DNA from: a bacterium
GTDB taxonomy: Bacteria > UBP15 > UBA6099
Assembly: GCA_035380865.1 (NCBI GenBank)
Contig: DAOSYA010000060.1
Span: 1 to 16,425, forward strand
DNA length: 16,425 nt
Reading direction: 5' to 3'
The notes below the pieces were generated by a model, which saw only the letters and a program-made list of their open reading frames with translations, was not told where the DNA came from and did no database searches. The first letter of the stretch is position 1. The number at the start of each line of letters is the position of its first letter. Below, piece after piece: positions 2-15,604 of this stretch. The position numbers and the translations under genes were made by a program.

Positions 2-415
2 TATGATGATCAGAAACAATGGACTTTTCCCGGCAATTGTTTTGATGACATCGTTCCTGTTCCGACACTGCAAAGCATTCTTGAACTAAGGATATTTGGT
101 AAACTCTCAGAGATCCATTTATGGCGAGGATCTGACGGGGAACTGCTGGGCCGAATAGTTAAAGACCTAACATGCGAAGACATCTCGCCACTGTCGCCAA
201 AAGATGAAAGTCGCCTGCTCCTAGGATACCACAGCAGGAAGATCCAGGAATGTGATAACGGATTTGTTCTTGTCAGGGACGACACGGGAGCACGCCAGGT
301 GCTGCCGCAGGTAAATGGCGATGCCCCGCAAAAACTCAATGTTAAGCATTACTTCAACGAAGATGAGGAAACCGGCACGGTGCGATATTGCCTTTGCAGA
401 TTTGTGGAGGTAAGT
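2..415 (+). CDS. 3' end (138 codons) of unknown protein, 5'-truncated by the window edge; translationally coupled to the downstream RAMP gene
   Basis: Frame 2 is open from nt 2 to TAA at 413-415 in AT-rich DNA. The listed antisense ORF 10..339 is its shadow. The stop lies 2 nt before ATG 418, with GGAGG at 406-410 inside the 3' end. No family recognised in ...RYCLCRFVEVS. Confidence 0.55.
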
Positions 416-417
416 TA

Positions 418-2742
418 ATGAGTAAAGATTATAAAAAAAATCAATACAAGCCCAAACAGCAGCAGGGGAAGAAAAAATCCTTCAAAAGTGAAAGCGGTGG
501 CAACCCAAATAATTGCAATAATTCCGGCAACCTCAAAAACAACAAGCTGTGCGAAGGTATCACCGCGCAGAATTGCAAATACAAACAGTGTTCGTACAAA
601 TGCAAAAAAGCTTTTAACAGCGGCAATCCGCCCACCCGAGCGCCATACAATTTCATTCCTCTCTACGAAAATCCATACGATGTGAGCGATGGATATCAAA
701 TCGCTTCGGGAGAAAAACTGAAACCCTGGGAGAAGAACGATACATACCACCCCGGATTACTCTCAGGTGTCATTCATCTCGATATCAAAACTGAAAAACC
801 AACCTATGTCGGCTGTGGAATCAAGAAGGAAGATGCCGACATGATTAGCAGAATCACAGATCCAGATAAAAAGAAAGCCGCTGAAAAAAAACTGAAACGG
901 GACTTCTTCTTCTCAAACAGTGAAACCCTGGAGCCCGTCATCCCCGGAAGTTCCATAAGGGGCATGACACGGTCTCTCGTTGAAATCCTTACATGCGGCA
1001 AGTTCACCGATTTTGTCGATGACAGGTTTATGTACAGGGCAGTGTTCAATAGCGATCCCGTGAACCATGAATATAAAAAAGTTTTCAAGACTCAGGACGG
1101 TTTCTATCCGTCCAGAAATATCAAATGTGGATATCTGCACATAAATGGGGTCGATTGGTCTATTATCCCCGCAAATGAACACCTAATAAACGAAGAGCTA
1201 TTCTCTTTCGTCCACATTACCCCCAAGAAATGGGAAATGAGAAACAACAAGATAAAATACAACGATCAAGATATTATAGGTAGAAAAATCAAGCTTAAAC
1301 TGCCATCAACTCTGAAGGGAAAACATATAGGCGCAGCCTCAATTAAGTATCCAGTCTGTTGCGATTACATTTTCAAAGATGAACTGGAAATGCTGTCTGG
1401 CGTCAAAAAGGCCGAATACAATTCTTACGTTGAAGCCGTAATCTTCCGCACCGGCAGCATGGGAAGCAGAAAGCATTACCATTGCGCGGTCTTTGAAAAA
1501 CAAATGCAGGATTCAAAATCCATTTCAATCGAAATCCCCGACCGCATTAAAAATGTTTATCTCGATGATACATCCGCAAAAAAGGGAATAGACGCCCGCC
1601 CTCTCAAAGACGGATCACCCGTTTTTTATGCTATAGAGAAAAAACAGAATAATGAGAAACTCGTCTTCTTCGGGCCGACAATGTTTTTCAGGCTCCCGTA
1701 CGAAAAATCTATCTCTGATTATGTCCCGCCCGAACTAAAAAATGAAAAAGCTATAGATATGGCGGAAGCCATGTTCGGCACGGTGGACGACGGGAACAGG
1801 ATTATTAAAGGCAGGTTGAGTTTCGAGGATGCTCCGCTTGACCCCCAACAAATGGAAAACAACAATAATTTTGATCCATTTCTCCAGACGCCCGCAAACC
1901 ATCCCGAAAAATATCAAGGGCTGTGGTCTCCGAAAATTCTCGGCGGCCCCAAAGCAACTGCCGTGCAGAATTATCTCCTCCAACACCCGCCCCAGAAAAG
2001 AAATGATCCTATTATGAACTGGAACTCAAAGCGCGGAACGGCAAACGCCCTGAAGAATGACGAAACACTGATACGCGGATACAAGCGCTACTGGCACAAG
2101 CCAAATGCGGATGAAAATTTCATCTTTGAAAATTTACCCGTGGAAGACAGTCAACATGTAGTCATGAAACCCGTCCGCGGCAGAGTCCACTTCTGCGGGA
2201 AAATTAAGTTTAATAATATCACTCACCTCGAACTGGGTGCGCTTCTTGCCGCCCTTGATCTACCCTCCGACATGCGCCACCAGATCGGCATGGGAAAACC
2301 CCGCGGCATGGGCAGCGTGCAAATAACACCTACCCTCGAACTGATCGACAGAAAAGAAAGATATCAGAATATGATGTTTGCCACTACCCGAACTCAGGAA
2401 AACACCAATGCCGGCGAGTCTTCCGATATAAAAGAACTAAAGAAAAACGCCCTGTCTCTTTTCCTGACAACTTTCGAACGTTGGCTGGGGAAAAAAGAGT
2501 GTGAACCACATGTGCAATTATCGTCAAATAGCAATAATGGAAACCACAGCTATGATGACATCAGAAAAAGCATCTGGGAACTTGGAAGAAACAGCGAGTT
2601 ATCAAAAATAATGGACTGGAAAAACGCCCCCGATCAAAATGACACCGACTACCACCCGATTGGAATATTTCGTGACAATAACTGGTCGAACAGATACATT
2701 CTCAGAGAAATAAAACATTTTCCTTTTAATAAAGCAGATTAG
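418..2742 (+). CDS. Large (774 aa) divergent RAMP-superfamily protein, Cas7-like, with an N-terminal Cys cluster and a roughly 240-aa insertion
   Basis: ATG 418 lies 7 nt after GGAGG; the tracker start 388 is a TTG. Motifs seen: GVIHLDIKTEKPTYVGCG (beta1 plus Gly turn, like LHIGSG); VIPGSSIRGMTRSLVEIL at nt 937-963 (compare Csm3 IPGSSLKGKMR); MFGTVDDGNRIIKGRLSFEDA at nt 1771-1833 (compare Csm3 LFGN...MGRLIFRDA); HLELGALLAAL; and a C-terminal G-rich loop GMGKPRGMGSVQI at nt 2287-2313. Cys cluster C-x11-C-x7-C-x4-C-x3-C at nt 514-603. Stop TAG at 2740-2742. Confidence 0.75.
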   Translation: MSKDYKKNQYKPKQQQGKKKSFKSESGGNPNNCNNSGNLKNNKLCEGITAQNCKYKQCSYKCKKAFNSGNPPTRAPYNFIPLYENPYDVSDGYQIASGEKLKPWEKNDTYHPGLLSGVIHLDIKTEKPTYVGCGIKKEDADMISRITDPDKKKAAEKKLKRDFFFSNSETLEPVIPGSSIRGMTRSLVEILTCGKFTDFVDDRFMYRAVFNSDPVNHEYKKVFKTQDGFYPSRNIKCGYLHINGVDWSIIPANEHLINEELFSFVHITPKKWEMRNNKIKYNDQDIIGRKIKLKLPSTLKGKHIGAASIKYPVCCDYIFKDELEMLSGVKKAEYNSYVEAVIFRTGSMGSRKHYHCAVFEKQMQDSKSISIEIPDRIKNVYLDDTSAKKGIDARPLKDGSPVFYAIEKKQNNEKLVFFGPTMFFRLPYEKSISDYVPPELKNEKAIDMAEAMFGTVDDGNRIIKGRLSFEDAPLDPQQMENNNNFDPFLQTPANHPEKYQGLWSPKILGGPKATAVQNYLLQHPPQKRNDPIMNWNSKRGTANALKNDETLIRGYKRYWHKPNADENFIFENLPVEDSQHVVMKPVRGRVHFCGKIKFNNITHLELGALLAALDLPSDMRHQIGMGKPRGMGSVQITPTLELIDRKERYQNMMFATTRTQENTNAGESSDIKELKKNALSLFLTTFERWLGKKECEPHVQLSSNSNNGNHSYDDIRKSIWELGRNSELSKIMDWKNAPDQNDTDYHPIGIFRDNNWSNRYILREIKHFPFNKAD

Positions 2743-3018
2743 TGCTGAATAATTGGCTCAAGAAGAGAACAGTGTTCAGGACTTTCTGATCTCGACTTCA
2801 GAACTACAATATTGATTTGTCTAACCCGGATTTCTCACAGAGAAATGCAGGCTAACCATGCTATAAATGGGAAGTCCATAGTGTTCGATATACCAATTAT
2901 TATATAGGTTTTCTTTTATTTATTTCAAATAAGAGCATATTTCCGAATAGTATCTCGCAGATATTGTATTGATACAAAGATAGTAAGAAAATATGAAATA
3001 TTTGAAAGGCGAGTGAAG

Positions 3019-3372
3019 ATGATTGAATCGAATCTTACAGGATATTGGCGAATTACCGAAATGGAGATGTGGGACAGCAATTACCTGGATATGGAAGTTG
3101 AGTCATATATTAAGTTTGAAGATAACGGAACCGGTGAATTTCAGTTCGGGCTCATCCACGGATGGATAGACGGTGATTTCACCGCCATGGATGAAAAACC
3201 CGCAGTAGAATTTTCATGGGAAGGCAACGACGAGATGGACCCGGCTTCAGGCCGCGGCTGGGCGATGCTGGAAGATGATATTACGCTGTCGGGTGAAATA
3301 TTTTTCCACATGGGAGATGGGTCCGGGTTCACTGCAACAAGGGAGAACAATGATCGGAAGACGAATGAATAA
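3019..3372 (+). CDS. Hypothetical small acidic protein (117 aa; GTG 3013 is an alternative start)
   Basis: ORF after a 270-bp AT-rich intergenic region. AGGCGAGTGAAG lies upstream of ATG 3019. Alternating hydrophobic pattern (YWRITEMEMWD...GEFQFGLIHGWIDGDF) suggests a beta-rich fold. The next gene starts 17 nt after its stop. Confidence 0.6.
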   Translation: MIESNLTGYWRITEMEMWDSNYLDMEVESYIKFEDNGTGEFQFGLIHGWIDGDFTAMDEKPAVEFSWEGNDEMDPASGRGWAMLEDDITLSGEIFFHMGDGSGFTATRENNDRKTNE

Positions 3373-3389: not shown

Positions 3390-4643
3390 ATGGCGAAGAA
3401 AAAAAACCAAAAGAGAGATGCCCTTAATGCTCTCCTGGAAGCGGCGGAGGCAAAAGATTTAAGAGCTTTGATAGTGGAGTTAGCAGATGACCGACCGGAG
3501 GTGCGCCGCGAGTGTGTCGTTTTTCTTAAGGAACACGTGTCTCTAAAACCGGCATCGAAATCAACAGCCGATGTTGAAGAGGCTTGGGCTTTGTGGGCCG
3601 AACTCGAGCCGGACCTTTCCGAACTCGACGAATACGGAGGCGGCGATTACGGCGTTCAGGATTATGTGGTGGAACTCCTTTATCAGCTTGCACAGAAGCT
3701 GAGGGAAAACGATATTTCGTGGGAAGTAAGACAGGAATTCCTCGAAGAAGTTCTTCCATACATTAAAAGCAGTAATGCCGGATTGGACGATGATTTATAT
3801 GAAGTAGCATATGCAGCATGTAAAACGAACGAAGAGGAGCGATACCTTGCGCAGAAATTCGAAACCCTTGGTCCTGATTGGGCAATAGAACACGCGATGA
3901 GAATATATAGGGATATAGGTGACCGGGACAAATACCTCGAACTGCATGCTCTGAAAATGAAATACGGCATGGACTATTACGATCTATCAAAATTCTACTG
4001 GGATGCCGGAGAAAAGGATAAAGCTGTCGAAGTGGCCCGCGAGGGAATGGAAAAGGGAGAGGGCAGAATGGACGAACTCAGAAATTTCCTCGCGATCCAT
4101 GCCAAAAAGAGCGGCGATCGGTCCGGATACTTTAAATTGCAATTTGAGCAGGCCACGGACAGACTCACTGCGAAGAAATACCAGGAATTCAGAAAAATAT
4201 GTGGCAAGAAAGAATGGGAAGAATATGAACCGAGGATAATGGCTGCGGCGGAAAGAATCCGGGAGGATGAACGGCTGAAAATTTTCATGTTGCGAAAAGA
4301 ATATGATAAAGCGATAGAGACACTTTCGAAGATGGATTATCCCGACGGACTTTTTGGTAAAGAGGATGTATTGAAGATTGCCGCGAAGCTGGAGAAGAGA
4401 TATCCTGAACAAGTGCTGGAATTCTATAAAACCGGGCTGGGTAACCTCAATATCAGTCTGACACGAAAAGACTACGCACGCAAAGCAACTGTCATTAAAA
4501 AAGTCCGCCATATGTGGATAGATATTATGAATGAGCCCGGCAAGTGGAAATTATTTGCCTCTCAGGTTAAAGAAGCCAACGACAGGCGTCCGGCTTTTCA
4601 ACAGGAATTCGCAAAGGTTGTACCTGGATGGAAAGAATTATAA
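3390..4643 (+). CDS. Hypothetical 417-aa alpha-helical protein (K/E-rich), unknown function
   Basis: AAGGAG lies 13 nt upstream of ATG 3390. Long ORF with protein-like composition, 17 nt downstream of the 117-aa gene. No recognised catalytic motif. Confidence 0.7.
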   Translation: MAKKKNQKRDALNALLEAAEAKDLRALIVELADDRPEVRRECVVFLKEHVSLKPASKSTADVEEAWALWAELEPDLSELDEYGGGDYGVQDYVVELLYQLAQKLRENDISWEVRQEFLEEVLPYIKSSNAGLDDDLYEVAYAACKTNEEERYLAQKFETLGPDWAIEHAMRIYRDIGDRDKYLELHALKMKYGMDYYDLSKFYWDAGEKDKAVEVAREGMEKGEGRMDELRNFLAIHAKKSGDRSGYFKLQFEQATDRLTAKKYQEFRKICGKKEWEEYEPRIMAAAERIREDERLKIFMLRKEYDKAIETLSKMDYPDGLFGKEDVLKIAAKLEKRYPEQVLEFYKTGLGNLNISLTRKDYARKATVIKKVRHMWIDIMNEPGKWKLFASQVKEANDRRPAFQQEFAKVVPGWKEL

Positions 4644-5064
4644 AATGTGACGGGAAACATGAAACAAAGGAGATTTTGGAATTCCACAATCAGCAAACAT
4701 GGAAATAGCTTTGCAAATGAACAAATTTCGAGGGTATTAATCCGAGCAGATATGATGGAAAGAAACCCCAAGAAAATGAAAAGTGCGATTGCATCAGGAC
4801 TATTTCATCGCACAGCAATCAGATTGCCGTTCCAGAGGTTCGCTGGACTCCACTGCTCCCGGTACACATTCTTCTCTATGCGCCACACCGCCGAGCCCTC
4901 TCCGTTAATCGTCCCTCGTGACATAATCCTTTGAAATAGCCACTACAATCCATGGCGGGATTTTGGTTTTTTATCTCTTACCTCTTAATGGAAAGCGGCA
5001 GTATATGAGATGAAGTGGTTACAGCGAAAAGTATATGAAACATGCAGTTTGAATTCTCAATACG

Positions 5065-5847
5065 CTAGCAATCAAAATACTTTAGGGTCATTGCAACTTC
5101 ATGCAAGTATTCGTTTTTCTCAGCATAAGAAGACAGAAAAAGAGTAATATGTGCCGAATATAATCCTTTGGACAAATCCAAAATCAAATCAATTTTACCA
5201 TCTTTATCCATATCTCCTGCCCAAATAAGTGCGGGGCCATTATCAATGTCAACCTGATCTTTTTTGAAGTCTCTAATTGTTTGAAACGGATAGTAATTTA
5301 ATTTTTGCTGTGTCAACCTTAACGCATCAGAGTTCGATCTAAAGAAGACTCTATAATCCTCGACATAAACTGTGGGATGTCTATCCTGCAATTTAGCATT
5401 GCCGATGCTTGTAAGCTGATAACTGATCTCATCTAACTTCAAATGAATTGTCATTCCTGGATAAAGATACTGATGTCCCCAGAAACTCGTTTTTATCGGC
5501 CCTTCTTCTAATGATGGAATACCTTTTATTATTAAAAACGGTTCTGATTTTTCCCTGACATATAAAACATCTTCAATATCTTCATCAGAACAAATTCCCT
5601 CTTTATTGATCTGTACCGTATATTTCTTGACACTTAATCCACTTTCGGTTTCATACAAACCCAACCGTACATCGCCGGAGCTTATTACAATCTCTTTCTG
5701 TTGGAGTGAAAGAGGCATCCCTATTGGTAGAATTTCAATGTTTGATGAATTGGTTGATTGTGGAATACTCAAACAAGGAGTGAGACTGCAAATCGTTGCT
5801 ATTATAAAAACCAGCAAAAATTCTAAATATTTGACCTTGGTTTTCAT
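5065..5847 (-). CDS. Hypothetical exported protein (N-terminal signal peptide), 260 aa
   Basis: N-terminus MKTKVKYLEFLLVFIIATICSLTPCLS has a signal-peptide character. Long ORF in the AT-rich arm. No family recognised. Confidence 0.65.
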   Translation of the reverse strand: MKTKVKYLEFLLVFIIATICSLTPCLSIPQSTNSSNIEILPIGMPLSLQQKEIVISSGDVRLGLYETESGLSVKKYTVQINKEGICSDEDIEDVLYVREKSEPFLIIKGIPSLEEGPIKTSFWGHQYLYPGMTIHLKLDEISYQLTSIGNAKLQDRHPTVYVEDYRVFFRSNSDALRLTQQKLNYYPFQTIRDFKKDQVDIDNGPALIWAGDMDKDGKIDLILDLSKGLYSAHITLFLSSYAEKNEYLHEVAMTLKYFDC

Positions 5848-5895
5848 TTCTATATCCCTGTAAAGTTCTATTTATATTTTATTAAGGAAATCCAA

Positions 5896-6231
5896 CTAAT
5901 CCGTATGCAGTATATCGACGATCTTCTTGATAATTTCATCGATCTGTTCCAGTTTGAGATGTCCGATACGATAAAGGATGATACTTTTGTCAGCGGTAAA
6001 GATGCGATTCGGCCTGACGTTGCTACTTTGCTTGAGAGCGCCATTTTCAAAATCGGCATCTTCAATTGAGATAGCGTATCTGTCACCAATATTCCTGCTG
6101 GTTATCTGGCAGAGGATATAATCGTCTCCATCAAGATCGGCGATGATGAGCGCCGGACGTCTCTTTGCTTGAGTCAAGTCGGAGAAAGGAAAAGGAACAA
6201 CAACAACGTCACCTCTTATAAATTTTGCCAA
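5896..6231 (-). CDS. Type II toxin, PemK/MazF-family mRNA interferase
   Basis: N-terminus MAKFIRGDVVVVPFPFSDLTQAKRRPALII is the hallmark PemK/MazF N-terminal strand/loop. 111 aa. Overlaps the upstream antitoxin ORF by 16 nt. Confidence 0.85.
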   Translation of the reverse strand: MAKFIRGDVVVVPFPFSDLTQAKRRPALIIADLDGDDYILCQITSRNIGDRYAISIEDADFENGALKQSSNVRPNRIFTADKSIILYRIGHLKLEQIDEIIKKIVDILHTD

Positions 6232-6419
6232 GCCTGCTCCTCCTCGGGGCTCAGCCAGTCTTTTTCGAGCGATGATTCACTTGCAATCGCGATGCCTAAT
6301 TTCTCCCTGCAATCAACCGCTCTCAAAAAACGGATGAATTCCAGGACTTTTTCGACATATGATTCAGGAAGCCGATCAATTTCCTTAATGATTGAATCTT
6401 TTCCAGACATTGCTCTCAC
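6216..6419 (-). CDS. Antitoxin, DUF2281-like (LPE..VLEFIRFL motif; acidic C-terminal SESSLEKDWLSPEEEQAW)
   Basis: 67-aa ORF directly upstream of, and overlapping, the MazF-like toxin. The motif pattern is typical of DUF2281 antitoxins. Confidence 0.7.
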   Translation of the reverse strand: MRAMSGKDSIIKEIDRLPESYVEKVLEFIRFLRAVDCREKLGIAIASESSLEKDWLSPEEEQAWQNL

Positions 6420-6607
6420 ATCCCTCGCTTTTTCAATTGACTTCCATGCACAGCTTCAGTCTCTTCATGATTTTATTTTAGTTCAATCCGGGATTTCTTT
6501 CCAGCGCTCAGGTTTTCTGCCACCAACTTTGCCGCCTGTGCAAAGAAAAACCACTTGCCCCGAATTATGTATTGTCACCTAAATATTGCCCGTGTTCCAT
6601 TTTAATT

Positions 6608-7021
6608 TCACTTTTCCTTAAATCGAAGATTTCTCAATAGTTCTGCTGCGATTACTACGTACAATACTATGCCAGAAGAAAACGAGGGGAAAAGAAATAC
6701 TACTACCAATGGACCTGGAAAACCATAACTATAATCAATATATCTGGTATATTGTGGAGCGATCAATATTACCCACGATAGTGCGAAAGAAATTGTAGAA
6801 CATGCAAGAACAGGCACTATTAACCTCAATATCATAGACTTTCTTCCAAGACGGAAGTAACTGAATATACCTATGAAAGTAGGAATCCCTATGCCTGTGA
6901 TAAATATCGGGTGCAATGTTATAATCCCATGAAAAACAATTTTCGTCTCGTTAAGGAGTAATGGTGTTATCAGAAGTTGAATAATCAAGCCAATAAGAGA
7001 GAGTTTTCTTTTCTTTTTCAT
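6608..7021 (-). CDS. Small integral membrane protein, about 4 TM helices, unknown function
   Basis: Basic start MKKKRK followed by four hydrophobic 20-aa stretches. 137 aa. Confidence 0.6.
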   Translation of the reverse strand: MKKKRKLSLIGLIIQLLITPLLLNETKIVFHGIITLHPIFITGIGIPTFIGIFSYFRLGRKSMILRLIVPVLACSTISFALSWVILIAPQYTRYIDYSYGFPGPLVVVFLFPSFSSGIVLYVVIAAELLRNLRFKEK

Positions 7022-7519
7022 TTGTCGATCATTTTCGAACGTTATATAATGATTATATCACATATGCCAATCTTTGATTACTGAAGAATCACAAGGTAAT
7101 CTTAAATAAATCTGACTTTGCTCCAACTGTCGATTTCTTACAGTAGTACCTTCTGAGGATTTGTACGACCCAGCAGGATATCATCTGTTTCTAATAAGGA
7201 AAGGTCTATTCAAATACTGTGTTCACATTTTCCCAAAATCAGCGAGATTTTCTATCAGGACCGGGAAATTACGGCGGATACCGATTCCACAGATTCGTTT
7301 ATTCAAAGGAACCTCATATCGACCCCGTTGTTATGGATTTCAAAGCAAATCATCGTGCTTTCAGAAAACTGGCATTTGTTCTCTTTATCTGTTTTCCATT
7401 TCTCTTTATGATTTTCTGTTTTTTTTAGCAACTTCAGCATGTTGGTTTCAGGTCTTTTTCGTTGTGAGGGTTCGATATTTAATCCGCTTTACATTGAATT
7501 CTTACGAGGCAGGATAGAA

Positions 7520-8536
7520 TCAGCCCACACTAACTTCATAAGCATTTCCGCCCGTGGGTTCACATTCGATTGCGCAGTCCATAAACCGCCTCACAATGCT
7601 TATGTTCGTCAACGTGTGCTTCGATGGTTTCAGTGTCCGAAATTTTCCACCGGCAGCCATCACCATCGGAATCAGGAGCTGGTCTGCAAGATATCTCCCG
7701 ACCGGAACCCCTGCCATATCGTAATTTTCATATTGCTTCACCGTTTTCCCGGCGACCTGTTCGGACGAAACCCCGAGTTCTCCGAAACCCGAGAATATTT
7801 CTGTGATATTGCTATACCTCATTTCTATCAAGAGCACATTACCCGGTCCGGGGGAATCTTTCGACTCGATGACTTGAAGACAATCTTTCCCGAACCCAAG
7901 TTTCTTCTGCACAAATTTAAGTTCCCGCCGACCTATATTGCCGGACAGGTTCGACATGATGGCATAAGCTTTCTGTCCTATTAAGTCACCTCTCTCTGAA
8001 ATATCCACCGGAGACAGTTTTTCAACCGGTTCGATATTTACAGTGAATCTTCCTCCGCCAGCAGGGTAGAATCCGCGTCGCTCCAGGTTGCACGCAACTG
8101 TCGGCCCCATCCTGTTTAAGCAAGGAAGAAAAACCTTCTCGATGAAATCATAGGGAGGTGCGAAAGGATTATGAGTCCCGCCTTCCAGTACAAGGCGAGA
8201 AGGGGATGATGCGGTTATAAGAGCAGGAAGCACAGTTTGCAATACAAGAGTGGCGCTCCCAGCCGTACCTACAGAGAACGTATATTCTCCGGGAACAACA
8301 TTGCCCGGGGTAAATTCTATTTCGGTGCTGCCAATTCCTTCTCCATCAACCTTTGCACTACTGATCTGCATCGCGGCTTTTACAGCCGTCAGGTGTTGCC
8401 TCATCAGTCCGGGCTTTTTCCGCTTGGCGCGAATATTCTCGATTCGGAATGGCTGACCCGTAACCAGTGACAGCGCAAGCGATGATCTCAGGATCTGACC
8501 GCCACCTTCTCCTTTGGAACCGTCAATTGTGATCAT
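7520..8536 (-). CDS. rtcA: RNA 3'-terminal phosphate cyclase RtcA
   Basis: [52 protein letters not shown] aligns with E. coli RtcA ([30 protein letters not shown]...KPGLLRQHLTAV), including the catalytic His in RQHLT. The C-terminus LADQLLIPM...HTLTNI matches too. The AGAGGA SD sits before ATG 8536. An in-frame upstream ATG at 8608 is preceded by GGAGGGGGG and is an alternative start, adding 24 aa. Confidence 0.9.
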   Translation of the reverse strand: [338 protein letters not shown]

Positions 8537-8784
8537 GATATTCCTCTTTCCGGTTTCCAGTATACTATCATGCCGATCAGAGAAATTGCACAGAAGTAAA
8601 TTATTCATTCGCCCCCCTCCGATACCTGCCGGGGTTCGCCTTTCCGACCCGGCAGGCTTTCTTCGACATTTCCGCCTTCTTGTTTCCCTTGATTCTCGTT
8701 ACCGGATTTCTCGTCCACTTTCTCCTCACCGATTTATATAATTCGGAGAAATCCGTTTTTCCCTTATTCATTATCGCGCCAACC

Positions 8785-9552
8785 TCACTTCCCCGGCAGT
8801 CCGGCGCACGGAGCAAACATCCCCTGCGCCATACCCATGACGAAGGTGTTTCCCGGCACGCTGGAAGCGTCGGATAATGTCTGAAGAATCCTCAGGTTCA
8901 TGAGCTCAGGATTCTTCTCAAGCATCTTCGCGGTATTTGCCAGGTTTCTGAGAGCAGCCGATTCACCGCGCGCTTTCTCGAGGACCGCCTGCCCTTCTTT
9001 CTTTGCCCTGATAACCTCGTTGAAGATTCGCTTCAGGTCCGCGGGAAACATGACATCCTTCACCTCTGTCATCTCCGCCTCAATACCGATAGGAACAAGC
9101 TCTTTTGATACTCTTTCAAAGATGTCCTTCCCGATCTCGTTTCTCTTCTCAAGCAGGTCTTCCACCGTTCGGAGGCCAATCGCAATCCTCAGCGCAATCT
9201 GAACGCTCGTGTATACAAACCCGTTGTAATTCTCAACACTGCGGTCAAGAAGCGCAGCATCGGCAATCCTGTAAGAGATTGTCATGCTCACCTTTATTCC
9301 TACATTGTCTGAAGTAAGCAATTCCTGTCCGGGCACGACCACAATGCTTGTCCTCGTGTCGAACTCCCTGGATGTAAGGACCGTAAACAGACAGATTACT
9401 CTGTGCATACCCGGCTCCAGAAGCCGATAAAATTTTCCATTGCGATACAGAACCACTACATGGTTCTCTCGTACAACAATCTTTCTAACTGCTGCGTAGT
9501 AAAAAATAACTGCCAGTACCGGAATCACTGCCGAATAAATTATGATGCTCAT
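8785..9552 (-). CDS. SPFH / band-7 (stomatin/HflKC-like) membrane protein
   Basis: N-terminal TM segment (IIIYSAVIPVLAVIFYYAAV) followed by an SPFH core (GMHRVICLFTVLTSREFDTR...VGIKVSMTISYRI...) and a coiled C-terminus. AAGGAGG lies 5 nt before ATG 9552. The longer tracker start at 9582 lacks an SD. Confidence 0.85.
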   Translation of the reverse strand: MSIIIYSAVIPVLAVIFYYAAVRKIVVRENHVVVLYRNGKFYRLLEPGMHRVICLFTVLTSREFDTRTSIVVVPGQELLTSDNVGIKVSMTISYRIADAALLDRSVENYNGFVYTSVQIALRIAIGLRTVEDLLEKRNEIGKDIFERVSKELVPIGIEAEMTEVKDVMFPADLKRIFNEVIRAKKEGQAVLEKARGESAALRNLANTAKMLEKNPELMNLRILQTLSDASSVPGNTFVMGMAQGMFAPCAGLPGK

Positions 9553-9793
9553 AACATCCTCCTTATCATATCCTGGTATCATGCCCCGTGGCGTTCGGGA
9601 ATCCCGGCGGGGGCATTTGCCCGCATGGCCGGAATTCCGTCACACCAGGACAGTAGATACTACCTGCCCCCGGGGTACTACAGTCAGGGATTTGAACCCT
9701 TTTGGCATTGAGCCGTAACCATTTGGAAGCCAATGCGTGGAATCGCAGATGAATATTTCAACTGTGACCACTGGCGATTTCCCTTCTTTAGAA

Positions 9794-10702
9794 TCAGTCA
9801 AGGAAGACCACGTTCTTTCTTGCAGGTGATTTGTCTTCCGTATTCATGAACACCCGGTGCCAGTCTTTAAGCACGATCGTTCTGTGATCCTTATGTCTCA
9901 CTTTTCCCCTCGCATAAACTTCGGGGTTCCTCTTCATGACGGTCCAGTTCCAATTCCTGACTTCTTCTTTCATGTTGTCGGGAACCTGCTTGAACAACTC
10001 GTTTCTCTCTTCTTCGGTTATCCCTCCGGGAACTGATCCGCATACATAGACCGTCTCTCCGCCAATTCTGAACAATTCCTCAACGATATGGGGCTTGCTT
10101 CCGGTTCCTCTCGAAATAGGCTCGTTTCTCAATATGGTCCTGCTGTCAACCTGTATGTCGCCGGCAGGCACAAAGAACCATTCTCCCTGTCTGACAAACC
10201 CCTTATTCCGCCTCTTATTCCTGTTTTTCCTCCTGACCCGGTTCTGCTTCTGCGCCGTCTTAACTAAGTCCGGCTTCAGAGCTTCAATAGCGCCAGACAC
10301 ACTTGACGCGGGCTTATCGCTGTCAGGAATTGCGGCAACGTACCACTGCCGTTCGTCATGCCCGCACAAAAACCTGAGATTTGTTAAGTCGGATTTGACA
10401 AATAACAACAGGTGCCTGTTCCGGGGAACACAATCCATGACCCGAACATCAACAGCATCACCCGCTTCTATAAGAAAGATTTCTCCCTTCCTATCTTTTG
10501 CCACATCAATTCTTATGTTCGGCGTATCTGATTCTTCGGGCGGCTCATCGTTTATAACTGCCTTGCCGTTTTCAAATGTGACGAACGGCCCCCATAAATC
10601 CCACCTGCTTGATCTGGCCTCATTTCTATTGTCAGCCATCTTTTCAATCCTGACCCTTGCACCGATCTTTTCGAACTTGTCTTTTATCAATCTTGTGTTC
10701 AT
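9794..10702 (-). CDS. Hypothetical 302-aa protein with an internal tandem repeat and a highly basic linker
   Basis: Long ORF, the first gene divergent from rtcR. Two copies of the motif GE(I/W)F(L/F)(I/V).AGD..VD (KGEIFLIEAGDAVDVRV and QGEWFFVPAGDIQVDSR) sit about 100 aa apart, separated by KQNRVRRKNRNKRRNK. No known family recognised. Confidence 0.7.
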   Translation of the reverse strand: MNTRLIKDKFEKIGARVRIEKMADNRNEARSSRWDLWGPFVTFENGKAVINDEPPEESDTPNIRIDVAKDRKGEIFLIEAGDAVDVRVMDCVPRNRHLLLFVKSDLTNLRFLCGHDERQWYVAAIPDSDKPASSVSGAIEALKPDLVKTAQKQNRVRRKNRNKRRNKGFVRQGEWFFVPAGDIQVDSRTILRNEPISRGTGSKPHIVEELFRIGGETVYVCGSVPGGITEEERNELFKQVPDNMKEEVRNWNWTVMKRNPEVYARGKVRHKDHRTIVLKDWHRVFMNTEDKSPARKNVVFLD

Positions 10703-10742
10703 CTTTCTGCCCTCTGCTCGATTGAGTTTCGCCTATCAATAA

Positions 10743-10758
10743 TCCAAACTCTTTGCCA
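10743..10758 (-). promoter_or_regulatory. Candidate sigma54 (-24/-12) promoter for the orf302-SPFH-rtcA string
   Basis: The minus strand reads TGGCAAAGAGTTTGGA against the consensus TGGCACG-N4-TTGCW: the -24 GG is intact but the -12 box is TTGG, not TTGC. It sits about 40 nt upstream of ATG 10702 and divergent from the sigma54-type activator rtcR. Weak match. Confidence 0.25.
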
Positions 10759-10843
10759 CGACGACTTATGCCTGGCGTGGACGCTAAAAATGCCTTTGAT
10801 AGAAGGTATAATTAATTTATGGAAACGTACTACGGGCAAAGGG

Positions 10844-10874
10844 TTGACATAGCCGCAGGGGCATGTCTTATAAT
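10844..10874 (+). promoter_or_regulatory. Candidate sigma70 promoter of rtcR (TTGACA - 19 nt - TATAAT)
   Basis: Perfect -35 hexamer at 10844-10849 and perfect -10 at 10869-10874, about 34 nt upstream of ATG 10908. The spacer is 19 nt (18 if TTATAA is used), which is longer than optimal. Confidence 0.45.
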
Positions 10875-10907
10875 ATATTCTATTATTTTAGAATACTGGA
10901 TAGCGCC

Positions 10908-12494
10908 ATGAAGAAAACAGTGGTAATTGGGTTGCTGGGTATCATACTTGATGCCTGCGAGAGGTCGAAGCGGTGGGAAAAGTGGAGACCCACAGTTTCG
11001 ATATGTCAGCATGAAGAATTTCTGATCGACAGGATGGAACTGCTCTGCCAGCCGAAGTTTCACAAGCTGGCAAATGATGTTATCGAAGATATCAGGACTG
11101 TATCACCCGAGACGGAAGTCAACCTTGTGTATACGGACATTGAAGACCCCTGGGATTTCGAAGAGGTCTATGGCACTCTTCATGACTTCGCTCGTAACTA
11201 TGATTTCGATCCGGATAACGAAGAATACCTGGTCCATATTACAACAGGAACACATGTTGCTCAGATCTGCCTGTTCCTTCTTACAGAGTCACATCTTATA
11301 CCCGGCAAGTTGCTGCAGGCGAGCCCACCCAAGAGAAAGTGTACGCCTATGGCGGGCAGTTATACCGTTATTGACCTGGACCTGTCCAGGTACGACAAGC
11401 TCGCTTCAAGGTTCATCAAGGAAAAATCGGACGACATTTCATTCCTCAAATCAGGCATAGATACCAGGAATGCAGACTTCAACTACTTGATAGAGCGGAT
11501 TGAACGGGTAGCGATAAACTCTAAAGCCCCGATATTGCTTATGGGACCCACTGGAGCCGGGAAATCACAGCTTGCCAGAAAGATATACGAACTCAAGAAG
11601 AACAGGCGGCAGTTGAGCGGCTCTTTCGTAGAGGTCAACTGCGCAACCGTTAGAGGAGATGCAGCAATGTCTGCTCTTTTCGGTCATGTCAGAGGTTCTT
11701 TCACAGGAGCCATGAAAGATCGGGCGGGGCTGCTTCGGGCTGCGGATGGGGGACTGCTGTTTCTCGATGAAGCAGGTGAACTTGGAATAGATGAACAAAC
11801 GATGCTGCTCCGTGCCCTGGAAGAGAAAGTCTTTGTCCCGCTCGGAGCCGACAACGAGGTCCGGAGCGATTTCCAGCTTATTTGCGGCACTAACCGCGAC
11901 CTCGCTGAAGAAGTCGCAAACAAGCGTTTCAGGGAAGACCTGCTTGCCAGAATTAATATGTGGACATTCTATATGCCAGGTCTTAAAGACCGCACGGAAG
12001 ACATAGAGCCGAACCTGCAATATGAACTCGACCAGTTCGAACAGCACAATGGTATTCACGTCATGTTTAATAAAGAAGCCCGAGAGCGGTTCATGGCATT
12101 TGCATCTTCTCCGGCTGCAAAGTGGAAGGCGAACTTTAGAGACCTGAACGGAGCCATAGCAAGAATGGCAACTCTGTCAACAGGGGGAAGAATCACCCTT
12201 GATGATGTTGACGAGGAGATAGAAAATCTCATGAGGTCGTGGCGGGAGCCTGCCGCAATAAGTACAACTTCAGAACTTCTCGATAGTATTCTGGGAGATC
12301 GGCTCGAAAAGATAGATCCTTTCGATCAGGCGCAGCTTTCATATGTCGTTCAAGTGTGCAAGGAATCCAGCACCCTGTCCGATGCCGGCAGGAAACTCTA
12401 TTCTATCTCACGCAACCGGAAAAAGAATACCAATGATGCTGATCGGCTCCGCAAGTACCTTGCCCGCTTCGACATAGACTGGAAAGATATTTAG
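10908..12494 (+). CDS. rtcR: RtcR, a sigma54-dependent transcriptional activator with an N-terminal CARF domain
   Basis: MKKTVVIGLLGIILD...RSKRWEKWRPTVSICQ parallels E. coli RtcR (MRKTVAFGFVGTVLD...RWEKWRPTLCLCQ). Also present: Walker A GPTGAGKS, the GAFTGA-like VRGSFTGA, FREDLLARIN, and a C-terminal NDADRLRKYLARF HTH, all collinear with E. coli RtcR. The tracker start at 10863 falls inside the promoter; ATG 10908 matches the homologous N-terminus. Confidence 0.92.
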   Translation: MKKTVVIGLLGIILDACERSKRWEKWRPTVSICQHEEFLIDRMELLCQPKFHKLANDVIEDIRTVSPETEVNLVYTDIEDPWDFEEVYGTLHDFARNYDFDPDNEEYLVHITTGTHVAQICLFLLTESHLIPGKLLQASPPKRKCTPMAGSYTVIDLDLSRYDKLASRFIKEKSDDISFLKSGIDTRNADFNYLIERIERVAINSKAPILLMGPTGAGKSQLARKIYELKKNRRQLSGSFVEVNCATVRGDAAMSALFGHVRGSFTGAMKDRAGLLRAADGGLLFLDEAGELGIDEQTMLLRALEEKVFVPLGADNEVRSDFQLICGTNRDLAEEVANKRFREDLLARINMWTFYMPGLKDRTEDIEPNLQYELDQFEQHNGIHVMFNKEARERFMAFASSPAAKWKANFRDLNGAIARMATLSTGGRITLDDVDEEIENLMRSWREPAAISTTSELLDSILGDRLEKIDPFDQAQLSYVVQVCKESSTLSDAGRKLYSISRNRKKNTNDADRLRKYLARFDIDWKDI

Positions 12495-14764: not shown

Positions 14765-15604
14765 TCAATCGAGCCTGAAGACTATTGAAACAGATATTTT
14801 CATCAATTCCATGCCGAGTTCCGCCGGTATGGGAGGAAACACGCCGCAATTGCGTATGGTGGTGATCGCGCCGTCATCCAGAACATCGAAATCCGACGAA
14901 TGGGCAACCCTGATATCCGATACCGAGCCGTTCGCGGCTATAGTGAAACTCATCACTGCCGCCCCCTCGAACCCCTCCTCACGCGCCCATGGCGGATAAT
15001 ACTTATTCCGGGCCACTATCGCCGCGACACTTTTCTTGTATCCCAGCATGACCGCGTCGAGATCGATCAAAGAGCAATCCCCGGCACATGCACGCCCGCC
15101 GTCGCATTCTTCGCCCCGCTCGACCACACCGTTCCCGCAGACCGGGATAACCATGCACAGGGAACTGCAGTAACTCCCTCCGTCGCACTCCTCGCCGGGA
15201 TCCTTTATCCCGTTTCCGCAAACAGGCACATACACCGGTTCAGGCTCCGGCGGCGGCACGTATATCTCCTCGTATGCCGGCCCGGTCGGGATATCGATTC
15301 CACCGGCATCCGCAACCTCGGCTTCGATGGGCAACTTCGGCGTCTCAGGTTCGGGCTCCGGCGGGGGTGGCTCAGGCTTTGGCACCGGTTTCGGCGGCAG
15401 TTTCTTCCTGGGCCTGGGCGGGGGTGGCTCAGGCCTGGGTTTCGGCGGTGGCGGCGGCTTCGGTTTCTCGAAAACCAGGCTGACCTTCTTTTCGTCGATC
15501 TGCGATTTATAGCTTGCGGCCATCGTGAACGGCACGGAAGCCAGCAGCAAATGAAACACGATAGATATCACTATCCCGATATTGCTCACGGAAGGACGCT
15601 TCAT
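14765..15604 (-). CDS. tonB: TonB energy transducer with a Pro-rich spacer and two inserted Myxococcus-type cysteine-rich repeats
   Basis: N-terminal TM anchor, then a (KP/EP)n region. Two repeats (CGNGIKDPGEECDGGSYCSSLC and CGNGVVERGEECDGGRACAGDCS) match the CGDGxxxxGEECDDGN 'Myxococcus cysteine-rich repeat' consensus. The C-terminal TonB_C-like domain is YPPWAREEGFEGAAVMSFTIAANGSVSDIRVAHSSDFDVLD. GGAGG lies before ATG 15604, which overlaps the exbD stop as TAATG. Confidence 0.85.
   Translation of the reverse strand: MKRPSVSNIGIVISIVFHLLLASVPFTMAASYKSQIDEKKVSLVFEKPKPPPPPKPRPEPPPPRPRKKLPPKPVPKPEPPPPEPEPETPKLPIEAEVADAGGIDIPTGPAYEEIYVPPPEPEPVYVPVCGNGIKDPGEECDGGSYCSSLCMVIPVCGNGVVERGEECDGGRACAGDCSLIDLDAVMLGYKKSVAAIVARNKYYPPWAREEGFEGAAVMSFTIAANGSVSDIRVAHSSDFDVLDDGAITTIRNCGVFPPIPAELGMELMKISVSIVFRLD

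Follow-up and report, generated by a model that had tools for sequence, protein, structure and literature searches.

We analyzed a 16,425-nucleotide stretch of DNA (the window) from a bacterium of the GTDB lineage UBP15, UBA6099 (GenBank assembly GCA_035380865.1, contig DAOSYA010000060.1). The window is nearly the entire 16,427-bp contig of a metagenome-assembled genome (MAG), and the absence of genes reported below, in particular of those for the RNA ligase RtcB and for RlaP, applies to this window. Between positions 7520 and 12494 it carries an RNA-repair (Rtc) locus in which the regulatory gene rtcR is divergent from a group of minus-strand genes. The first of these encodes a 302-amino-acid protein that we call X302, the second an SPFH/Band-7 membrane protein, and the last is rtcA, the gene for RNA 3'-terminal phosphate cyclase. 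A conserved structured RNA lies between X302 and SPFH, and a small basic open reading frame (ORF) lies between SPFH and rtcA.

All four protein-coding genes are found on the strands on which they were first described, based on the ORF listing and profile searches, which agree with the first-pass annotation in placing rtcR divergent from the 302-aa protein, SPFH and rtcA. The rtcR ORF spans 10863-12494 on the plus strand, with a likely start at M16 (10908..12494) according to the profile alignment and conservation in relatives. Its product has a CARF-type RtcR domain, a sigma54-interaction AAA+ domain and a lid, and it scores 800 bits against NF038308 (cut-off 650, aligned from residue 16), with Pfam matches to RtcR (PF06956, 6e-83) and Sigma54_activat (PF00158, 5e-48). 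The first 15 codons of the ORF overlap a motif that is intergenic in two of the related loci described below (L001 and L244). The rtcA ORF, at 7520-8608 on the minus strand, likely starts at M25 (7520..8536), a start (ATGATCACAAT) kept in L001 and L244. The RtcA product scores 438 bits against NCBIfam NF003246 (cut-off 352, aligned from residue 25) and 1.4e-82 against Pfam RTC (PF01137), and its C-terminus is intact, with model positions 3-336 of 342 covered. The SPFH ORF (8785-9582, minus strand) likely starts at 9552, which gives the 255-aa NCBI gene model (8785..9552) named 'slipin family protein'; PF01145 (2e-31) spans residues 36-207, preceded by a hydrophobic N-terminal helix, MSIIIYSAVIPVLAVIFYYAAV, read from the translation. 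X302 (9794..10702, minus strand) has no match in Pfam, even at E<=10, or in NCBIfam, PHROGs and PADLOC.

The absence of RtcB that was first noticed also holds: a tblastn search of the window with the RtcB and RlaP proteins of a relative gave no match, for RtcB at E<=10, and no remnants of either gene. However, three related loci with the same operon tell us what would be expected next to rtcA. In L001, on an 850-kb contig, rtcR is divergent from X302 - small ORF - RtcA - RlaP - RtcB, with a full RtcB and an X302 that is 59% identical to that of the window. In L244, where X302 is 51% identical, rtcR is divergent from X302 - Band_7 - RtcA - RlaP, with about 110 bp of contig left after RlaP. In L248, which was found via the SPFH protein, the order is X302 - RNA - Band_7 - small ORF - RtcA - RlaP - RtcB N-terminus, with identities to the window of 67% for X302, 73% for Band_7 and 69% for RtcA; RtcB is represented here by its first 17 residues, which occupy the last 51 bases of the contig and share 82% identity with the L001 protein. 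Thus RlaP follows rtcA in 3/3 relatives, and RtcB is next wherever the contig extends far enough (L001 and L248), which is the very arrangement that the first-pass annotation had named as contrary to its proposal.

When the rtcA 3' ends are aligned, the resemblance of the window to each of the three relatives stops precisely at the stop codon of rtcA (synteny break, 7380..7519). Where the relatives start RlaP, the window continues with AT-rich, unrelated sequence, and its composition profile gives a GC content of 0.35-0.41 over ~4500-7519 compared to 0.45-0.58 elsewhere. Given that the relatives carry RlaP-RtcB and that synteny stops at the rtcA stop, the most likely reading of the missing RtcB is that the distal end of the operon was lost or replaced locally, or that the gene was relocated; it does not define an RtcB-independent system. 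In addition, X302 shares a contig with RtcB in 43 of the 247 X302 loci that we collected, the opposite of what would be expected of a substitute for RtcB.

The low-GC segment, which begins precisely at the expected position of RlaP-RtcB, is possibly an inserted or replacing stretch. It holds the orphan ORFs 5065-5847(-), 5896-6231(-), 6608-7021(-) and 7161-7517(+), of which 6608-7021(-) encodes a membrane protein with about four transmembrane segments and has a TATAAT-like promoter of its own.

The intergenic region between rtcR and X302 is 205 nt long and shares blocks of sequence with L001 and L244. These include the near-palindrome TAGAATATATTATAA (10868..10882), which adjoins the rtcR start, has an identical block, TTAGAATATATTATAA, in the control regions of both relatives, and is followed by an A/T-rich block. 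We regard the near-palindrome as a candidate RtcR enhancer site or a candidate promoter/operator of rtcR. A sigma54-type promoter candidate, TGGCAAAGAGTTTGG (10744..10758, minus strand), has the form GG-N10-GG and lies 42 nt upstream of the X302 ATG. Its position is kept in the relatives, with the first base 56-58 nt from the X302 start, a fixed distance across the window, L001 (TGGCAACCCGCTTGA) and L244, where the element is canonical (TGGCAATCGGCTTGCC). Acidobacterial loci in which rtcR is divergent from rtcB have canonical TGGCC-N7-TTGCT elements. The gaps between the minus-strand genes, with their hairpins, had been taken at first as a possible sign of several transcription units, for which we found no support: a consensus scan of 6500-11000 detected no terminator-like sites, and the gaps hold conserved elements. 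From the sequence, we infer that X302, SPFH and rtcA belong to one RtcR-dependent transcript.

Based on these observations, we consider it fairly probable that the locus is a sigma54/RtcR-controlled RNA-repair operon of an extended type, made up of X302, the structured RNA, SPFH, the small basic protein and RtcA, and that it has lost its RlaP-RtcB end, or had it replaced, from the rtcA stop codon onwards. Of the variant Rtc module proposed in the first-pass annotation, the non-canonical operon is retained, as it is conserved in L244, L248 and, without SPFH, in L001, and has a sigma54-type promoter candidate at a conserved position. The part that is not retained is the different partner taking the place of RtcB.

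The spacer of about 200 nt between X302 and SPFH contains the conserved structured RNA (9580..9782, minus strand), which is supported by covariance models and by covariation. Between the window and L244, the spacer is 78% identical over ~210 nt, compared to 51% for the flanking X302 proteins. RNAalifold finds 52 pairs in these two sequences, with none broken, six compensatory double changes and seven single GU/GC changes, and the window spacer alone folds at z = -3.65. Aligning the regions upstream of four SPFH genes with MAFFT alone was not informative, and it was the close comparators L244 and L248, together with a covariance model, that revealed the relationship. We used two models with the window as seed: R2, covering a 5' bipartite hairpin and a T-arm-like hairpin (window 9684-9782, with the T-arm-like hairpin GGGUUCAAAUCCC at 9686-9700), and R3, covering a long 3' hairpin domain (window 9580-9678) that stops about 28 nt before the SPFH start codon.

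At E<=1, R2 matches nine places in ~3.2 Mb of sequence, namely the window, L244, L248, L014, L065, L068, L055, L088 and L250, and in 9/9 the match precedes an SPFH gene of one and the same subfamily and runs in its direction, so that the linkage of RNA and SPFH is exclusive in this set. L248 (79.5 and 83.3 bits), L014, L065, L068, L055, L088 and L250 are independent members. The feature of this SPFH-upstream family, a GGGUUC(R)A(N)UCCC hairpin with a 5' bipartite hairpin, is present in the window. In the alignment of the nine sequences, 96.4% of the cells are standard pairs, and 11 of the 20 pairs (33 cells) have changed on both sides; 0/500 shuffles match the observed values, and sliding the partners gives at most four such pairs. 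R3 was found only in the clade of the window (window, L244 and L248), plus a partial hairpin match in L249.

Orthologues of the SPFH protein (73% identical in L248, 53% in L244, and 36-49% in L014, L065, L088 and L250) sit in RNA-repair or tRNA-array contexts. L250, which was retrieved via SPFH alone, has the order Ro60 - RNA - SPFH - ATP-dependent Rnl-type RNA ligase (PF09414) at 5863-9986, with RtcB 3.3 kb upstream of Ro60 and no X302, so here the SPFH-RNA module is paired with another ligase family. In L249 (6335-8819, Archangium violaceum chromosome), a close SPFH homologue (46% identity) follows an EF-Tu gene, with a gene for a ribosome hibernation factor (S30AE) nearby and no Rtc genes; the partial RNA match is at 7921-7948.

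The window RNA is not one of the known Y RNAs. Searches of the window against Rfam, including YrlA (RF02553) and the Deinococcus Y RNA (RF01053), gave no match at gathering score or at E<=10. ARAGORN reports no tRNA genes in the window, Rfam RF00005 gives no match, and profile searches find no Ro60 (TROVE) protein there. The T-arm hairpin is the only part of the RNA that resembles tRNA or Y RNA, and there is no D-arm-like GUAGCUCA...AGAGC. We also tried the window RNA as a member of the Y-like 'family A' described below, and rejected it, as model R1 matched the T-arm only (6.5 bits, E 1.7). Burroughs and Aravind, writing in NAR in 2016, reportedly put forward RNA-repair systems in which an SPFH/Band-7 protein would be a scaffold and have its own 'novel tRNA-like' RNA. 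The SPFH gene and RNA of the window are probably this module, as they too pair an SPFH protein in an RtcB/RtcA setting with a structured RNA that has a tRNA-like T-arm. The RNA as defined here has a 5' bipartite hairpin, and the extra 3' hairpin domain of the window's clade abuts the SPFH ribosome-binding site.

Between SPFH and rtcA lies the small ORF, PLN69_10020 (56 codons, 8601..8771, minus strand), whose predicted product is very basic (MNKGKTDFSELYKSVRRKWTRNPVTRIKGNKK...). No other called homologue was found among 5.8e9 proteins. However, there are uncalled homologous ORFs at the same position in L001 (68% identity over 47 aa) and L248 (60%, E 9e-18), though none at that position in L244, and they share a conserved core, VRR.WTRNP[VI]TRIK. 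The window and L001 differ by 11 synonymous and 21 non-synonymous codon changes. Within the 3' end of this ORF, about 90 nt upstream of the rtcA start, there is a GC-rich hairpin (8625..8656, minus strand). It reads CCUGCCGGG...CCCGGCAGG in the window and L001, and CCUGUCGCGG...CCGCGACAGG in L244, with two compensatory pair changes read from the alignment.

X302 belongs to a large family that appears, from its predicted structure, to have a new fold, and that is unannotated throughout. We found 6,742 proteins at E<=1e-3 in a database clustered at 90%, all called 'hypothetical' and without Pfam domains. At 50% identity there are 2,476 clusters, nearly all of them stand-alone proteins of ~265 aa. 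In P0215 (735 aa), an X302 member is fused to, or was mis-called with, an N-terminal WD40 beta-propeller, which gives no functional hint. The AlphaFold2 model of X302, based on a 49-sequence alignment (pLDDT 90.6, pTM 0.86), consists of two beta-rich domains, connected by helices and by a linker rich in Lys and Arg, and no structural relative of it was found in PDB or BFVD. Residues ~22-55 contain an N-terminal insertion of about 30 residues (RNEARSSRWDLWGPFVTFENGKAVINDEPP) that is partly present in P0003 and absent from most members; it is modelled at lower confidence (pLDDT 63-84).

In an alignment of 80 sequences, including relatives from phage contigs at 23-30% identity, the invariant residues of X302 are D116, E117, R171-Q172-G173-E174, F177, H205, G266, H270, H273, N287 and E289, and the C-terminal residue is always Asp. 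This pattern suggests a catalytic or metal-binding site, and thus that X302 may be an enzyme.

To place the family in its genomic surroundings, we used 247 X302 loci (3.16 Mb) comprising 80 metagenomic loci, 80 from IMG/VR and 80 from GTDB representative genomes, the best 80 of each scan, along with a few exact look-ups. These loci contain 1,085 tRNA genes (~340 per Mb), of which 1,052 share the strand of X302; by comparison, the total for a bacterial genome is 30-220 tRNA genes (PMC8421152). Among the 180 loci of at least 8 kb, X302 is near at least five tRNA genes in 67 and at least 10 in 39, with the largest array, of 40 tRNAs, in L104. The other neighbors in these 180 loci are RtcB (32), HNH endonuclease, often directly downstream (31), Ro60 with TROVE and vWA domains (16), RtcR (9), RtcA (7), SPFH (6) and RlaP (5), and 85/180 have a tRNA array or at least one of these genes near X302. 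The contexts of the family members P0004, P0005, P0006, P0014 and P0064 were looked at as well and are unrelated to rtc. The family is spread over Planctomycetota, Verrucomicrobiota, Acidobacteriota and IMG/VR viral contigs, many of them 100-500 kb long, and is absent from the collections of sequenced phages (INPHARED) and plasmids (PLSDB).

Several of the loci combine these elements. L014 has the order tRNAs - X302 - tRNA-Phe - RtcB - tRNAs - RNA - SPFH, and L192 and L195 have X302 - HNH - RtcB. In Acidobacteriota (L034, L059, L073, L213 and L233), rtcR is divergent from rtcB - rtcA - Y-like RNA - X302 - YrlA-like RNA - small Cys-rich protein - Ro60.

Two Y-RNA-like families flank X302 in the acidobacterial loci (L034 7718-7843, 8737-8843 and 9044-9164; likewise L059, L072, L073, L082, L024 and L015). 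'Family A', upstream of X302, has the GNCGAAN0-1G motif of YrlA RNAs, and 'family B', downstream, has the YrlA architecture, with Rfam YrlA matches in L034 at E 1e-5 and 9e-4, below the gathering score; neither family is picked up by ARAGORN or by Rfam at that score. Directly downstream of X302 in the Acidobacteriota-type loci, and before Ro60, is a Cys-rich protein of ~110 aa without a Pfam match (L073 6007-6336, L082 1564-1875, L024 1435-1782, L072 2451-2771, L075 6574-7014, L076 9112-9432, L081 3628-4017 and L019 2436-2768). We also observed that the tRNA arrays hold an unusually long tRNA-Ile(UAU) of 90-96 nt (L022 8683-8778, L031 7025-7116, L062 3796-3885, L063 8888-8978, L059 11031-11124 and L032 7389-7479). 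They have a long variable arm, whose loop is CAGAUAC or CAGAUAU in four well-folded examples. These tRNAs look class-II-like and would read AUA without lysidine. We had considered tRNA splicing, and dropped the idea as the long tRNA-Ile(UAU) genes are intron-free.

The locus can be compared to several known systems. As in canonical Rtc systems, with E. coli rtcR divergent from rtcBA and Pseudomonas rtcR divergent from rtcB-rlaP-rtcA, RtcR is divergent from an operon with RtcA, and the relatives of the window also hold RlaP and RtcB (PMC3854526; bioRxiv 10.64898/2025.12.29.696909). In contrast to these systems, the window operon begins with X302 and adds SPFH, the structured RNA and the small basic ORF, while rtcA comes before rlaP-rtcB in the relatives and the window is without both rlaP and rtcB. 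Salmonella rsr-yrlBA-rtcBA is likewise an RtcR operon that mixes repair enzymes with a structured RNA bearing a T-arm, and Ro60 and YrlA-like RNAs are present in other X302 loci, but the window is without Ro60, and its RNA is not YrlA and is tied to SPFH (PMC4201824, PMC7790460). Bacterial Y RNAs mimic tRNA and are located in rsr-rtcBA operons (PMC4201824).

Long arrays of tRNA genes (L-arrays) spread horizontally; an HNH gene and rtcB are linked to them and, in Anabaena, are induced together with them under translational stress (PMC8421152). The TrcR repressor, described as a functional counterpart of RtcR, regulates the array together with rtcB, the HNH gene and an operon ending in the slipin gene alr0740 (PMC10272220), which places this slipin within the regulon of rtcB and the tRNA array (PMC10272220, PMC9938897). 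X302 loci are similar in having co-directional tRNA arrays with HNH and rtcB, and a slipin is co-regulated in Anabaena; on the other hand, X302 is not mentioned for that system, and the window has no tRNA genes. We considered Anabaena alr0739, upstream of the slipin, as a possible X302 and rejected it, as it is a YdeI homologue (PMC9938897). Salmonella RtcR responds to damaged tRNA (PMC7790460, PMC10159003). RlaP extends the 3' ends of damaged RNA by 1-2 NMP, and heavily damaged tRNA requires it to regain function (bioRxiv 10.64898/2025.12.29.696909). Because X302 and the SPFH-RNA pair fit with this published biology of L-arrays, TrcR, RtcR, RlaP and Y RNAs, we believe that they belong in a response to damage of tRNA and the translation apparatus, and the repair target of the operon is most likely tRNA.

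A possible mechanism would be as follows. Damaged RNA would activate RtcR, as in Salmonella and E. coli, and RtcR would open the sigma54 promoter (TGGCA-N6-TTGG) ahead of X302, giving one transcript for X302, the RNA, SPFH, the small protein and RtcA. X302 would be an enzyme that acts on the ends of tRNA or tRNA-like RNA, by trimming, healing or cleavage, before or beside RtcA, RlaP and RtcB, which would contribute the cyclase, nucleotide addition and sealing steps, respectively. We infer a tRNA-end enzyme because of the invariant Asp, Glu, Arg, Gln, His and Asn residues and C-terminal Asp, the Lys/Arg-rich linker, and the embedding of the family among tRNA arrays, RtcB, HNH and Ro60-Y RNA. 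SPFH and the RNA might form a membrane-anchored scaffold, or a regulatory module or leader, of the repair system. In the window organism, sealing would need an RtcB encoded elsewhere; otherwise the operon would be a decaying or RtcA-only remnant. More tentatively, it is possible that X302 is a new class of tRNA-acting enzyme with an unseen fold, a nuclease or end-healer that prepares damaged tRNAs, or the tRNA-like Y and SPFH RNAs, for RtcA, RlaP and RtcB, and that it is an overlooked core component of RtcR operons and of tRNA-array islands in bacteria and jumbo phages, with SPFH and the RNA serving as a membrane-bound ribonucleoprotein scaffold.

Several points weigh against these readings. 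The loci were gathered by similarity to X302 or SPFH, with at most 80 taken per scan, so the counts should not be read as frequencies in a population. Among the 180 loci that reach 8 kb, over half (95/180), mostly stand-alone chromosomal copies in Planctomycetota, have neither a tRNA array nor a repair gene nearby, so the X302 family need not always act in Rtc repair, and the 'viral' contigs may include host islands. The -12 element of the window promoter candidate is TTGG where the consensus is TTGC. The alignment used for RNA covariation was fitted to the structure of the model, the E-values of the covariance models are rough, and, instead of being a scaffold, the RNA could act in cis as a leader of the SPFH mRNA. 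The predicted fold of X302 yields no functional clue. An assignment of X302 to the HNH/His-Me nucleases, by an 'H-x-D-H...N-x-E' hairpin-helix, was rejected, as hhalign of the X302 profile against the co-occurring HNH family gave a probability of 0.06% and there is no Pfam HNH match at E<=10.

Among the alternatives, the first-pass proposal was healing independent of RtcB, in which the 2',3'-cyclic ends made by RtcA are passed to X302 as a new ligase or end-processor, possibly at the membrane via SPFH. It would account for a window without RtcB and RlaP, for the enzyme-like invariant residues of X302, and for the many X302 loci that have no RtcB within +-8-10 kb. We nevertheless find it very improbable, given that RlaP, and RtcB where the contig extends, follow rtcA in all of the relatives, that synteny ends at the rtcA stop together with a change in composition, and that X302 is so frequently found beside RtcB. 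X302 could instead be a gene of the tRNA arrays and phage islands, carried along as cargo or for mobility, for example as the partner of an HNH homing endonuclease, and a hitch-hiker in the rtc operon. An HNH gene is close to X302, and often directly downstream, in 38 loci, relatives are found on IMG/VR contigs of 100-500 kb, and L-arrays spread by horizontal gene transfer and carry an HNH gene (PMC8421152). This too seems improbable to us, since X302 is promoter-proximal in the RtcR operons of the window, L001, L244 and L248, which are without HNH or tRNA genes, many stand-alone chromosomal copies are under purifying selection, and X302 has no HNH profile similarity and no member in the sequenced-phage and plasmid collections.

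A non-catalytic role is rather unlikely, though less so than the two above. X302 would then be an RNA-binding adaptor or chaperone, like Ro60 or Archease, that presents tRNA-like RNAs to RtcB and RtcA or activates RtcB. The Lys/Arg-rich linker and the invariant aromatics (W120, W175, F176, F177, W253 and W281) are consistent with such a role, as are the position directly beside RtcB with flanking Y-RNA-like genes and the lack of likeness to any known enzyme fold. However, most of the residues that are kept at 23-30% identity have polar or charged side chains, as would be more usual for an active site or a metal site, and the family is also found without RtcB.

What bacterial RtcB/RtcA repair acts on physiologically, and with which accessory factors, is still poorly defined, and the extended operon and its relatives point to three parts absent from the textbook system: the X302 family, a covariation-supported RNA dedicated to a slipin-type SPFH protein, and a tiny basic protein upstream of rtcA. 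With an apparent Rtc system without RtcB accounted for by local loss, the interest lies in these conserved and essentially uncharacterised parts. The genomic signature of X302 makes a role in tRNA damage directly testable, and it connects RtcR operons to the horizontally spreading tRNA arrays of bacteria and large phages, which have been discussed as translational-stress and anti-defence devices.

The flanks of the locus are unrelated to it. On one side, beyond the low-GC orphan ORFs, is a type III-D Cas7-like protein, encoded at 388-2742(+). This 784-aa Cas7/Csm3-like RAMP fusion (PADLOC Cas7_IIId, 2.4e-117; Pfam RAMPs, 6.6e-11) is ~5-8 kb from the CARF-containing rtcR. The ORFs beside it (3013-3372, 3390-4643 and 4647-4934, all plus strand) have no family matches, and there is no CRISPR array in the window. 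The presence of a type III effector fragment near a CARF regulator may be a coincidence, or, as an idea, may reflect cyclic-oligoadenylate signalling to the CARF domain. On the other side are a metallophosphoesterase with a TAT signal and TonB/ExbD/ExbB genes. The TonB-like gene (14765-15604, minus strand) holds short, imperfect Gly-rich DNA repeats (GGTTCAGGCTCCGGCGGCGG and similar) at 15237-15461, which probably encode a low-complexity linker.

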